Assembly: GCA_965224805.1 (NCBI GenBank)
Contig: OZ245063.1
Location: 283,212 to 347,211 of the forward strand
Direction: 5' to 3'
DNA from: Robiginitomaculum sp.
GTDB taxonomy: Bacteria > Pseudomonadota > Alphaproteobacteria > Caulobacterales > Maricaulaceae
DNA length: 64,000 nt
Position 1 is the stretch's first letter. Each line of letters starts with the position of its first letter. Shown here in pieces: positions 375-31,689 of this stretch. The translations under genes and the position numbers were made by a program. The notes beneath the pieces are model-generated. The model was not told the DNA's origin and ran no database searches. It saw only the letters and a list, made by a program, of their open reading frames with translations.

Positions 375-3300
375 ATGTCACGAACACGTAAGGTTTTGTG
401 GGGCTTGCTCGGCCTGTTACTTGTTGGCGTGTTGGTTTTGGCATTGGCGTGGTATAACCGTTATTCTTTACTTGAAACCCAAGTTCAGAAAGCTTTAGAC
501 AAACGCGGCATTGCAGCACAGTTTAACATTACATCTGCTGATAAGCACCACATGGTCATCGACGACATTACAATGTCTGCTAAGGGCGCCGACATTTTTT
601 CAGCTTCTAGTCTCGCTTTGGAATATGATGTGAAGCGGGCATTCAAGGGTGAGTTTAAGCGTATTGTTGTCCGCAAACCTGTCCTTAATATTGTTCTTGA
701 TGAACACGGCAATATTGTTGGAGATTATGTGCCGCAATCATCGGCCGGAGCAGGTTTTACATTTCCTGTGAACGGGATTGTTGTTGAAGAGGGGTTGGTG
801 GTTTGGCAGACAGCGTTCGGGCATGGACGCACGAAATTGAGTGCTGAAATCGTGTCTGCGCAAAACTGGAATGTAGTATATAATAGCCCCAACACTCAGC
901 TTTCTCAAAATGGCGTTGCGTTGGCACTCGATTTTGCTGGCGGTGTTGAACAAAGTGAGGACAACAAATTTACGGCTTTTGGTACGATGTTTGCACCCAA
1001 TCTTGACACACCAGTTTTGCAAACTGGAGAGGCGAAGACAGATTACCGCTTTGATATTCACCGCAAGAACGCGGATATTTTGGATGTTTCTGGTTGGTTA
1101 AATATAGACGCACAGGACATGGACATCGCCCAATATACGGCCAATAATGTAAAGCTACGCTTGGATATAAAAACGCCGTTTAACACGATGCACCGCAATT
1201 TTGAAACCTTTGACGCGGGTTGGACATTGCGCGGTGACAATATCTCTGTGAAAGATACAGATCAACGCCAGCAATTGGTCGACAAATTAACGGCCAGAGA
1301 CGCTATGTCAAAAGCCCCAATAGCTATGCATTTTAGCCATATTTTACCGCAAGAATTGGCGGTGTTACTGGACGCGTTTTCTGCTGAAGGCAAGGGTAGA
1401 TTTTCGTCAAACCCTAGTGGATATGAGGTGCATTTGACAGATAGGTTTTCGGTTAAGAATGCCCATCAAACTGTCCATATCCCTAGTCAAGAAAACGCAA
1501 CAATACGGTATGATAAGCGGGCCCAAAAACTGCATTTTGATGCAAATATGGATTGGCGCGGTGCATGGCCCTTACAGATCAATAATTTAAAACTTGAGGC
1601 CTTAAGCGCTACAGGTTTTCGTATCGACGCAATGCAGCGGTTTAGCGCCAATATCATCACCAATACCGCATGGAAATTACGCACCAATGGTGAGGATTTT
1701 CGCCTTGCCCCGATGGATATCGACTTAGATTACACGGACATTGGCAGTGTGCGCCATGTGGTTATGTCAGGTAACCTTGATTATGACGGGCTTGTACCAG
1801 AGGGGCGGGTGCAAAATTTACGGGCAGGTGGCCGTATGAAAATACGCATGCAAAACAATGATTTTACGCTCGGGTTTTCCTCCGCCTCCAATGTGCATAT
1901 GGACACATTTATCAGCCAATCAGGATGGCGTGCAGACGGTGTTGATTTTGAAATGAATGATACGAAAAACCTGATCCAATCTCGCGTAAATGGACGGGAA
2001 TTGCAGGCGGTGTTATTGGGTGTAACTGCGCAAATCATCAGCCCCGAACAAGACCGTCATTTGCAAATGAGCCTTGATAAAATACAGGTGCGCTCGGTAC
2101 TCACAGATATACCTTTGGTTTGGAATATGAATATTACGGGTGCGGATATTCGTTCGGACGACTTTCCTTCACCCGGTACACATATTCGCGCCGCAAATAG
2201 TCAGTTAACCGTGACGCAGAGCTTGGACGGTGCATTGTATTTTAAGGCAAAAAACCCTGATACATTTATTGAAACTGATAATGTGTTGGTTGAACATATT
2301 GAAATTGACATGGAAGGGACACCAGAAGATATATATGCACGCTATAATACGCCGCGCGTGAAATTTAAGGGCGGCGATATGCCTGCCCTGCCGTTTTCTG
2401 GCACGGCGCGGCTTTTGGATGGTGTTTTAACGGGAAATGCATCGGCAAACTTGGCTTTGGCTGACGGAATGGCTGTTGGTGAAAATACAAAAGCTGATAT
2501 TTTATTTCGCTCTGTTGATGGGCAGGGCACGGTAGAGATTAATATACCCGCACTTGATTTTACGCCGCGTGGTTTGCAGCCGCAATATTTTGTCCCGTCA
2601 CTGCGCGGTAAGATAGCTGATGTCAGTGGGCGTGTTGCGGCCAATTTGCATTTTTCATTTGGGGGCGACGGGCCGATACAATCATACGGAACAACGGATT
2701 TGATAAACTTAAATATCGGGACATTGGTTGGCCCCATTAGCGGTATCAATGCGAAATTGAAATTTAGCTCTATTTTCCCGTTAACAAGTGACGGGGTGCA
2801 AATGGCCACTGTCACAGGGTTTGACCCAGGTTTTCCACTTAATAACGGTGAGGTTCGCTTTGAAATGATTCCAGACGGCGTGCGTATTGATGAGGCGGTT
2901 TGGCCCATAGCCAACAAAAGTGCGGCTACAGATAACGAGGCTGGGCGGCTCTTTATTGCTCCGATGCAGTGGATGTTTGGCAATGTTGAAAATACGGCCA
3001 TAGTCCATATTGAAAACTTGGATTTGGAAACCTTACTGGAGGATATTGGCAAAGATAAATTGTCGGTTACAGGAAAAATAAGCGGGGTTTTACCTGCAAA
3101 AATAAAGGGTGTTGATGTTCGTATTGCGCAGGGAAAATTAGAGGTTAAAGACGGCGGCATTATTCAGTTTAAAACACCTGAAACAGGGCTAGCCGCAGAG
3201 CGTAATGAATTAGCTGGTTATGCTTTGAAAGCTTTGGAAAACCTCACCTACCAAAAACTGGAAATGCGCATTAACGGCCCGCTTGACGGCAGTGTTAATT

Positions 3301-21455: not shown

Positions 21456-21770
21456 ATGGAACGTCAAAATATACGCATACGGCTTAAGGCCTTCGACCAC
21501 AGAATTTTGGATCATTCGACCCAAGAGATTGTGGCTACTGCCAAGCGCACAGGCGCGCAAGTTCGCGGCCCCATTCCGTTGCCGACTCGCATCGAAAAGT
21601 TTACCGTTAACCGTTCGCCGCATGTGAATAAGAAATCTCGTGAACAATTCGAAATTCGTACCCATAAACGTATGCTCGATATTGTTGATCCAACCCCGCA
21701 AACCGTAGACGCGCTGATGAAGCTCGACTTGGCTGCTGGTGTGGACGTTGAAATTAAGTTGGGAGCATAG
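21456..21770 (+). CDS. rpsJ: 30S ribosomal protein S10
   Basis: 104 aa. [14 protein letters not shown]...[19 protein letters not shown]. Confidence 0.97.
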
Positions 21771-21772
21771 TT

Positions 21773-22765
21773 ATGCAACGCTCAGGATTAGTTGCTAAAA
21801 AACTCGGCATGACCCGTATCTTTACGGACGAAGGTGTGCATGTGCCTGTGACTGTGTTGGCCCTTGAGGGTTGCCAGATCGTAGCCCACAAAACACAAGA
21901 CCGCGACGGTTATACGGCCTTACAATTAGGTGCAGGCACTGCCAAAGTGAAACGGGTATCTAAGGCCGAGCGGGAACGCTTTGCCAAGGCGAACGTCGCG
22001 CCGAAGCAAAAATTGGTTGAATTTCGCATTGATGCAGACGGTTTTATTGATATTGGCGCCGAAATGACGGCTGACCATTTTGTTGTTGGTCAAAAAGTTG
22101 ATGTTTCTGGTGTTTCCATCGGTAAGGGTTTTGCTGGCGCCATGAAGCGTCATAACTTTAGCGGACTTCGCGCTACCCACGGTGTATCTATTTCCCATAG
22201 GTCCCACGGCTCAACGGGCCAGTGTCAAGATCCGGGTAAAGTGTTTAAAGGTAAGAAAATGGCTGGCCATATGGGTGCGGTTCGTGTGACAACCCAAAAT
22301 GTTGAAATTGCTCGCGTTGACGTCGATGACGGCCTTGTCCTTGTTCGCGGCGCGGTACCGGGTTCTAAAGGAACGTGGATTGAAATTCGCGACGCGGTTA
22401 AAGGTGTGAAAGCAAATGATTTACCAACACCGGGTAAATTTAAAGTGGCTGCTAAGCCTGAACCTAAAGCTGAAAAAACAGCTCCTGCTGCTGACTTTGT
22501 TGACGCAGTTGTTCTTATCGACGGTATTGGCCCGAAGGGTGAAGAAGTCTTAGAAGCTGCTGGTATTACCAAGCTGAGCCAAGTGGCGGCATGGAGTGCT
22601 GACGACATCAAAGCGATTGAAGAAAAAATCGGTAAAGACGGTGTTGTCGCCAAAGAGCAGTGGGTTGAGCAAGCCAAAGAAATGATTGGCGGCGCGCAGC
22701 CACGTGCCAAAGTCGATCAGGACTTAAAAGCAAAAATGCTGAAATCATCAGGCGAGGAAGAATAA
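21773..22765 (+). CDS. rplC: 50S ribosomal protein L3 with an unusual C-terminal extension of about 100 aa
   Basis: Residues 1 to about 215 are canonical L3 ([10 protein letters not shown]..., [22 protein letters not shown]). These are followed by an A/K/P linker and an extra module, [40 protein letters not shown]...[13 protein letters not shown]. Confidence 0.93.
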
Positions 22766-22767
22766 TC

Positions 22768-23388
22768 ATGAAACTTGATGTGCAAACATTAGCCGCCAAA
22801 AAATCAGGGTCTGTGACCTTGGATGACGGTATTTTCGGCCTAGAGCCGCGTAAGGATTTGCTGCACCGCATGGTGCGCTATCAACTGGCAAAACGTCAGT
22901 CTGGTAATCACTACACCCAAGAACGTGGTGACGTGAAAAAGACAACCAAGCGGATTGGCAATCAAAAAGGCGGCGGTACGGCCCGTCATGGTAATGGTGC
23001 GGTTTCGCAGTTCCGTGGTGGTGGTAAAGCCCACGGCCCGCGTGTACGTTCACATGCTCACGGTCTGCCGAAAAAAGTACGTGCAGCCGCACTTCGCCAT
23101 GCATTGTCTGCAAAGGTGACTGCGGGCGAGCTTATTATTCTTGATGACGCGGTCATGAAGGCTCCTAAAACAGCAGATTTGAAAAAATCCTTAAGCAAGC
23201 TTGGTCTTGAAAACACGCTCATCATTTCTGGTGCTCAGGTTGATGAAAACTTTGCCAAGGCCGCAAACAATATTCCTAACCTAGACGTTTTGCCAAGCCA
23301 GGGCGCAAATGTGTACGACATTCTTCGTCGGCATAATTTGGTCTTAACGAAGCAGGCCGTTACCGATTTGGAGGCACGTTTGTCATGA
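22768..23388 (+). CDS. rplD: 50S ribosomal protein L4
   Basis: 206 aa. [25 protein letters not shown]. Confidence 0.97.
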
Positions 23389-30642: not shown

Positions 30643-31689
30643 ATGCGTTTAAATGAGCTTAGTGACAATAAGGGGGCTGCCAAAGCCCGTCTTCGGGTTG
30701 GTCGTGGTATCGGTTCTGGCAAGGGCAAAACGGCTGGCCGTGGTGTCAAAGGACAAAAATCACGTTCTGGTGTATCTATTAACGGGTATGAAGGCGGCCA
30801 AATGCCGATTTATATGCGCCTGCCAAAGCGCGGCTTTAACAAGCCAAACCGCAAGAAATGGGCCGAGCTTTCTATTCGCCGCCTTGGTCAAGCCATTGAA
30901 GCTGGCGCTCTTGATTTGAAAAAAACTGTTGACGCAGAAGCTCTTGTGGCAGCTGGTGTGATCCGCCGCGAGCTTGACGGTGTGCGCCTTATTGGTGCTG
31001 GTAAAATTTCTGTGGCTGTAAACCTAACAATTGCTGGTGCAACTGCTGGTGCAACCAAAATTATTGAAAAAGCCAAAGGCTCTGTGAGCATTCTTGAAGT
31101 GAAAGCTGCGCCTCTACCATTGCGCGGCGCGCCAGAGAAAAAAGAAGCAAAACCACGTACGATTTCTAAGAAAAATGCAAAAATAGCTGCGGCAAGAGCA
31201 GGCGTTAAAACCGAAGCAAAGCCTGTAGCTAAAAAAGAAGCCGCATCTAAGAAAGCAGCTCCTAAAAAAGTAACTCCAAAAAAAGCAGCTCCAAAAAAAG
31301 CGGCTGAGAAAAAACCTGCAGCTAAGAAACCTGCAGTTAAGAAACCTGCTGCGAAAAAGGACGATGTTGCGCGTCATATTCCCTATTGGGAAGCGGTTCA
31401 AAAGTATGATGCCAAAGCGGACGAAGATGTTGTGCGTAAAATCGTTAATTATTGCGGAATTTCTTTGAACAGCCGCGACGGTAAATTCGTTGCCTGTACG
31501 GACGAAACAGAGCGCAACACTGTGCGGGACGGGTTTATAAAGAAAAAACTTGGGCTTAAGGGTGACGACGCTGATCTTGACGCGAAAGTCATGGCTGTAT
31601 GCGAGCAGATGAAAAAAGATCGTCTTAAAAACCGGGTTATCTTTTATTACTTGCTGGCTCAAAACGAGAAAATGCTGGGAGACCTTTAA
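30643..31689 (+). CDS. rplO: 50S ribosomal protein L15 fused to a Lys/Ala/Pro-rich repeat and a DUF2853-like domain
   Basis: 348-aa uninterrupted ORF. Residues 1 to about 152 are canonical L15 ([26 protein letters not shown]...[15 protein letters not shown]). Residues about 160-240 are KKAAPKK/KKPAAKK repeats. Residues about 243-348 ([27 protein letters not shown]...[12 protein letters not shown]...[14 protein letters not shown]) resemble stand-alone DUF2853 proteins. Confidence 0.9.

Follow-up and report, generated by a model that had tools for sequence, protein, structure and literature searches.

An acidic helix-hairpin-helix-type module appended to ribosomal protein L3 in Robiginitomaculum and related alphaproteobacteria

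The small C-terminal domain considered here is already known as a module family and is part of the NCBIfam models of long L21 and S2 proteins. The copy carried by L3 of Robiginitomaculum sp. matches the C-terminal ends of the long-L21 models NF008916 (E 9e-17) and NF008915 (E 2e-15) and of the long-S2 model NF008966 (E 2e-8), as well as positions 315-387 of the 400-aa NuoE model NF009040 (E 6e-13) and positions 156-231 of the 234 in the phasin PhaH model NF045508 (E 9e-12 to 4e-11). The statement in an earlier sequence-only reading, that NuoE and several unrelated alphaproteobacterial proteins end in a similar module, proved correct, and the NuoE, L21, L15 and membrane proteins of relatives bear it out further. 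In an exhaustive profile-free search the module turned up, at E <= 1e-3, in 4,106 representative clusters. Many of the proteins are tandem arrays of 3 to 25 copies, with A/P-rich linkers between the copies and no domain matches outside the helix-hairpin-helix (HhH) clan. Three metagenomic proteins of 2,280-3,115 aa (P0153, P0154 and P0155) consist of 15-25 tandem modules and no other recognised domain. Across 142 diverse modules a W and a Q are invariant, and G, L, G, A and A are conserved in at least 90%; the L3 equivalents of the family-wide W...Q-A are W297, Q300 and A301, and the hairpin G is also present.

Nonspecific DNA binding is the sole experimental function reported for the module family, and it is reported for PhaH only. 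According to a review (PMC13052382) and a second paper (PMC12678847), each of which cites Salinas et al. 2023 (Mol Microbiol 120:307, doi 10.1111/mmi.15124), PhaH of Caulobacter binds polyhydroxybutyrate (PHB) granules through its N-terminus and DNA, nonspecifically, through its C-terminal HhH domain, which places the granules on the nucleoid. Run against the control set, the PhaH model picks up Caulobacter vibrioides; in the source genome it matches only the module parts of L3 and S2. Two cryo-EM studies concern proteins with the module, from D. shibae and Rdv. sulfidophilum, and found it invisible or cleaved off; their authors describe its function as obscure and remark that NuoE and further proteins carry it too (PMC12079452, PMC13066640). 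The corresponding PDB sequences are 8yy9 chain O (E 2e-8; D. shibae protein-O/Urf1) and 9wqv chain a (E 5e-7; Rdv. sulfidophilum Urf1/protein-3h). The 8yy9-related and 9wqv entries leave the module unmodelled, and no experimental structure of it was found.

Neither a paper on the module attached to L3 nor an NCBIfam model that combines the two was found, and literature searches on DUF4332, one of the faint domain matches described below, gave nothing that bears on L3. What is new is L3 as a host, the single origin of this fusion accompanied by natural in-frame deletions, the acidic subtype that it carries, and the exchange of the HhH module with an unrelated domain, DUF2853.

The extended rplC gene

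The window, a 64,000-nucleotide stretch of contig OZ245063.1 (assembly GCA_965224805.1), contains rplC at 21773..22765 on the plus strand. According to the open reading frame listing and translation, it encodes 330 aa, the stop codon being included in these coordinates. It lies between rpsJ (21456-21770) upstream and rplD (22768-23388) downstream, with tuf further upstream. The source genome has one L3 match only, making this the sole L3 gene of the cell. The bacterial L3 equivalog model TIGR03625 (202 positions, all covered) aligns to residues 5-206 with 272.6 bits against a cut-off of 142.9, so the L3 core is complete and about 120 residues are extra; E. coli L3 is 209 aa long. The length and the extension past the core were read correctly from the sequence alone, the segment then quoted corresponds letter for letter to residues 241-307, and the interval given for it, 22448-22765, runs from residue 226 to the stop codon and takes in linker, module and tail. 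The parts of the gene are as follows, with the evidence in brackets.

21773..22417, plus strand: canonical bacterial L3 core, residues 1-215, including the internal loop 117-168 (TIGR03625, AlphaFold2)
22418..22492, plus strand: flexible, mildly basic K/A/P-rich linker, residues 216-240 (pLDDT, dN/dS, charge)
22493..22708, plus strand: HhH module, residues 241-312, predicted five-helix domain of the acidic L3 subtype (AlphaFold2, fold comparison, NCBIfam)
22709..22762, plus strand: conserved C-terminal tail, residues 313-330, with an acidic SGEEE end (invariant residues, predicted helix)

Counted over residues 208-240, the linker has a net charge of +4, and the helix predicted by AlphaFold2 in the tail spans residues 313-327.

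The L3 extension is genuine, being neither a product of chance nor of assembly. The sequence-only reading had named a sequencing or assembly artefact as its undoing. Nothing was found in support of such an artefact, or of an overlooked stop codon that would fuse rplC with a separate gene downstream, and either is scarcely credible given that the frame is unbroken in a single closed contig of 3.07 Mb, that rplD begins just 3 bases past the rplC stop codon, that the same architecture occurs in more than 100 independent assemblies from three families, and that the extension is under purifying selection (dN/dS about 0.11). The best 120 matches listed are all L3 proteins of 329-358 aa and come from many assemblies. 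Matches of 141-185 aa with 70-96% identity to the module resembled free-standing modules at first sight; the six inspected (158-171 aa) are pieces of L3 whose predicted frames begin at an internal Met or are cut by the edge of a contig. Separately, a 430-aa metagenomic frame (P0142) joins S10 directly to a module-bearing L3 that lacks its first 15 or so residues, and probably reflects a deletion, or else rpsJ and rplC having been merged in assembly or gene calling.

Selection differs between the parts of the protein. The median dN/dS values, which are rough because dS is saturated at about 1.5-1.8, are:

L3 core: about 0.08
Linker: about 0.26, the least constrained part
Module: about 0.11
Tail: about 0.11

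Sixteen positions of module and tail are invariant in 66 long L3 proteins across three families: D244, L248, D250, G251, G253, K255, L268, W297, Q300, A301, G307, P310 and R311 in the module, and D315, L318 and K321 in the tail. The terminal G-E-E-E of the SGEEE type is also kept by the L3 proteins of relatives without the module (L065-L070, from genomes G080, G053, G027, G037, G003 and G046), and this acidic end may be a short motif in its own right.

Fold and charge of the module

In the full-length AlphaFold2 model, built on an alignment of the 66 long L3 sequences, the L3 core is confident except for the internal loop 117-168 (pLDDT below 50), as expected for a model that contains no rRNA. 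The linker is predicted to be disordered (residues 228-240, pLDDT below 50), and residues 245-325 form a separately folded helical domain with a pLDDT of about 70-76. Modelled alone with 142 diverse homologues, the module has five short helices and a core pLDDT of 86-92, followed by a less confident sixth, terminal helix. The D-G-I-G-P-K hairpin lies before the predicted helix 253-262, in keeping with the G-hydrophobic-G hairpin between two helices that characterises HhH domains.

The Pfam matches of the L3 module, all below threshold, are to the S13 N-terminal region (25.1 bits against a cut-off of 31), HHH_5 (16.3 bits against a gathering cut-off of 27) and DUF4332. Multi-copy relatives of the module do pass the HHH_5 gathering cut-off, so the HhH relationship holds at the level of the module family. 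The best folds found by VIA-align are the C-terminal HhH domain of PolQ (Z 7.7), AF1548 (Z 7.5) and NusA AR2 (Z 7.2, rmsd 2.2 A over 62 residues), with the Rad51 N-terminal domain, Pol X, UvrC, DisA and SAM domains at lower scores. The top (HhH)2 matches span Z 7.2-7.7 and rmsd 2.2-2.5 A over some 62 residues, and Z below 8 is common for small helical domains. A Foldseek comparison with the PDB returned nothing at E <= 1e-3, and the fold conclusions rest on VIA-align and sequence profiles. Taken with the invariant G-I-G-P-K hairpin, these middling fold scores make the assignment to the HhH class, as predicted from profiles and models, sound at the module-family level, with the L3 protein itself under the Pfam cut-off. 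The HhH-like character ascribed to the extension by the sequence-only reading thus stands. As a separate observation, the top Foldseek match was a mitoribosomal large-subunit protein of Trypanosoma brucei (chain BS of 6yxx, 7aoi and 6hix; chain As of 7aih), with a VIA-align Z of 6.5-7.0.

Within this family the L3 copies stand out by their charge. The mean net charges of modules, net charge being a crude proxy for surface electrostatics, are, by host:

L3: -9.2 (range -12 to -6)
S16: -9
L15 (three): -5.0 (range -7 to -2), the two f6 copies being the more acidic
S2: -4.2
L21: -2.1
PhaH-like: +0.7
NuoE: +3.7
Transmembrane (TM) protein with two modules: +4.8
TM protein with module and DUF2853: +6.5

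The source-genome L3 module has a net charge of -6, and the basic types of module range from +4 to +8. The conserved basic motif F-[KP]-G-R-I-x-R-[DE]-x-W is absent from the L3-type modules, which at this site have G-K-x-G-V-V-A-K-E-E-W or G-V-T-x-Q-A-E-K-E-E-W. The K/R residues beside the hairpin are lost too, while G-I-G-P-K and W...QA are retained. By sequence, then, the L3 module is a diverged acidic subtype, and the functions of NuoE- or PhaH-type modules are not simply transferable to it.

The closest described systems resemble the L3 extension in layout and differ from it in detail. PhaH likewise has a homologous C-terminal HhH module, a flexible linker and an unrelated cargo-binding part ahead of it, but its cargo is a PHB granule rather than a ribosome. 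In the sample studied, PhaH-like modules range from near neutral to basic and have GRIxRE, whereas the L3 type is acidic and without it, and the two lie in separate major clades of the module tree. The long alphaproteobacterial L21 and S2 proteins share the plan of a ribosomal protein core, a low-complexity linker and the same module, although the L3 modules form a clade of their own and have a stronger negative charge (-9.2; S2 -4.2, L21 -2.1). In the long NuoE and Urf1 proteins of Rhodobacterales the same module, judged by sequence, again sits on a flexible linker. Their hosts, however, are membrane respiratory or photosynthetic complexes, their modules keep a tryptophan-rich basic consensus (QIA-W, GRxSRDEW), unlike the L3 type, and NuoE of the source genome is without the module. 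NusA AR1 and AR2 are acidic (HhH)2 domains in a flexible tail, and serve protein-protein docking instead of DNA binding. They have no detectable sequence relationship to the L3 module, however, and the resemblance in predicted fold and charge is one of functional analogy, not of membership.

Distribution, descent and exchange with DUF2853

The source genome has the complete module twice only, on L3 and on S2 (407 aa); its NuoE is a 233-aa frame with no module. Among the 74 genomes of the source organism's family that have an L3 match, 12 carry the module on L3, and its occurrence is patchy even within genera (4/6 in g1, 3/5 in g2 and 2/4 in g16). In a sample of 201 genomes of the order it is found on L3 in about 28, with confirmation by sequence: 5 in f1, 16 of 40 in f2 and 7 of 39 in f6. 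The families f3, f4 and f5 of this sample yielded none. A survey of rplC had been proposed along with the initial observation, and it shows that the long form is not ubiquitous. Named database relatives with the fusion are Robiginitomaculum and Hellea.

On any host, the module is present in 78 of the 81 family genomes, at 1-6 copies each. The hosts, assigned from the 30 best loci and 20 fetched regions of these 81 genomes, are L21, NuoE, L15, S2 and proteins of PhaH-like layout. Further hosts have an N-terminal TM helix and a coiled coil ahead of the module, and the same TM scaffold can carry a histone-H1-like AKKAAPKK linker followed by a module and DUF2853, or by two modules. A metagenomic protein (P0141) joins S16 to a module that is 77% identical to that of the source-genome L3.

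S2 deserves separate mention. In the source genome (L002, 1456..2679, minus strand, 407 aa) its core, residues 28-243, is followed by an A/P/E/K linker and the HhH module, and this form occurs in all six of the six genomes of the genus. Many other S2 proteins of the family are frames of 418-516 aa, in which the HhH-bearing query covers only the part to about residue 300-330; these probably carry another appendage.

In a maximum likelihood tree of 63 modules over 83 alignment columns, many forks are unresolved, although the branches named here are starred. The 19 L3 modules, which come from three families, all fall into a single clade (100/100). Within it, the S16 module is placed next to that of the source-genome L3 (100/99), and two L15 modules of f6 nest among the L3 modules of that family (95/82). 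The groups nearest to the L3 clade are the S2 modules and the L21 modules of f6 and f4, and the other major clade (100/96) unites the NuoE, membrane-anchored, PhaH-like, f1 L21 and f1 L15 modules. The single L3 clade points to one old fusion and indicates that it arose once, in an ancestor common to three families of the order. Relatives' L3 proteins without the module, two of them from the congeners G053 and G080, keep an A/P/E/K-rich tail and the terminal G-E-E-E, so that the module is cleanly absent in frame. The pattern fits vertical descent of the L3 module with rplC, repeated loss, and local copying onto S16 and L15.

The second domain of this system is carried by L15. Source-genome rplO (30643-31689, plus strand, 348 aa) encodes an L15 core (PF00828), a PAAKK-rich histone-H1-like linker and DUF2853 (PF11015, E 8e-29). 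S16 of the same genome (frame 1492-2376, minus strand, of locus L061 at G000:C1:1992928-1996224) has an A/E-rich linker and then DUF2853, and the domain occurs further as one free-standing copy and as two copies on a TM-coiled-coil-AKKA protein. The sequence-only reading had spoken of two large-subunit proteins decorated with extra domains. L3 and L15 are indeed both extended, though the domain on L15 is DUF2853 and not HhH, and the number two was too low, with at least four decorated ribosomal proteins in this genome (L3 and S2 with HhH, L15 and S16 with DUF2853).

Relatives have the HhH module, or both domains, where L15, S16 and the TM-coiled-coil protein of the source genome have DUF2853. 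For L15 the HhH module was found by sequence in place of DUF2853 in at least three relatives (G043, G241 and G236), and five more were assigned only by their position about 8.5-9.3 kb downstream of rplC. Judged from these sequences, the HhH module and DUF2853 take each other's place on L15, on S16 and on the membrane-anchored coiled-coil protein, and probably also on S2. DUF2853 (PDB 2pyq, uncharacterised) thus resembles the module in being found where the module is found, at the C-terminus of L15, S16 and the TM-coiled-coil protein, and in being less basic on ribosomal proteins (net charge +2 on L15 and -2 on S16) than on membrane anchors (+9 to +15), but it belongs to an unrelated sequence family. 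Such positional interchange of two unrelated domains points to one shared or paired role.

The membrane-anchored protein itself (L064:442-1800, plus strand) is conserved and consists of a TM helix, a coiled coil, AKKAAPKK linkers and two strongly basic small domains. The two terminal domains are DUF2853 twice in the source genome, and HhH with DUF2853 or HhH twice in relatives (L021, L026, L028, L031, L038 and L040). It looks like a membrane-to-nucleoid tether. Since the two domains are fused in the membrane proteins of relatives, the L3 module and the L15 DUF2853 were put through a complex prediction, whose score of 0.00 weighs neither for nor against binding.

Possible roles of the L3 module

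As 50S structures are generally understood, the C-terminus of L3 would face the solvent. The L3 core would be built into the subunit as usual, and the module would hang from it on the solvent side as a mobile tag some 30 residues off the surface. With its strong acidity and its loss of the basic GRIxRE of the PhaH and NuoE types, the L3 subtype is probably repelled from rRNA and DNA and would be better suited to docking a protein. It may thus link ribosomes to a putative, probably basic, protein partner, in the way that the acidic (HhH)2 repeats of NusA dock proteins. Its role would be an accessory one, and DUF2853 probably has the same role or a related one. We tentatively favour a dispensable docking domain off the 50S surface, for which a protein partner is likelier than a nucleic acid. 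A lineage-specific ribosome-associated function, as the initial observation had suggested, is plausible.

The G-I-G-P-K hairpin of HhH motifs is their phosphate-contacting element, and its invariance in the L3 subtype is one reason to consider a tether of the PhaH type, in which the module, with or without the basic linker, would bind DNA or RNA nonspecifically and hold ribosomes on the nucleoid or on mRNA, much as PhaH does with PHB granules on the nucleoid. Its homology to the C-terminal HhH domain of PhaH, a DNA binder according to the account given in PMC13052382, speaks for this as well, as do the net charge of +4 of the L3 linker and the many other hosts that pair the module with histone-H1-like AKKAAPKK linkers. 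Yet the L3-type modules have net charges of -6 to -12 and lack both F-K-G-R-I-x-R-E and the K/R residues flanking the hairpin, they belong to the major clade opposite the PhaH-like modules, and a domain that binds polyanions should, if attached to a ribosome, collapse onto the rRNA. A nucleic-acid tether is thus possible, if on the unlikely side. The module could also have no specific ligand, acting as a charged bulky bristle that keeps ribosomes apart or soluble, or persisting as the nearly neutral baggage of one fusion. Its many clean losses, even within a genus, would suit such a domain, and the module-free L3 tails remain acidic and low in complexity. It is nevertheless improbable for a domain whose dN/dS of about 0.11 is near that of the core, which retains a specific predicted fold and 16 invariant positions in module and tail across three families, and whose L3-type copies on S16 and L15 argue for a selectable, portable function.

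A broader proposal is a lineage-wide addressing system made of HhH and DUF2853, in which the basic tags of membrane anchors, NuoE and granule proteins would bind the nucleoid or membrane and the acidic or neutral tags of ribosomal proteins would dock onto these basic tags or onto histone-like linkers. This is a long shot at present. If it were true, the bearer of the ribosomal tag (L3, S2, S16, L15 or L21) would be interchangeable, and ribosomes, complex I, storage granules and the envelope would be physically networked.

It is rare for a bacterial ribosomal protein to acquire an entire folded domain, yet in this order one portable tag is found on L3, L15, L21, S2 and S16, on complex I, on a DNA-binding phasin and on membrane anchors, with a clear acidic/basic split between ribosome-borne and membrane-borne copies, and the natural clean deletions of the L3 module are ready-made controls. 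Should the tag prove functionless, the case amounts simply to a neat instance of domain shuffling. If docking is true, it would provide a first testable function for two widespread domains whose roles are described as obscure in the structural studies, and a concrete handle on the spatial organisation of ribosomes in alphaproteobacteria.
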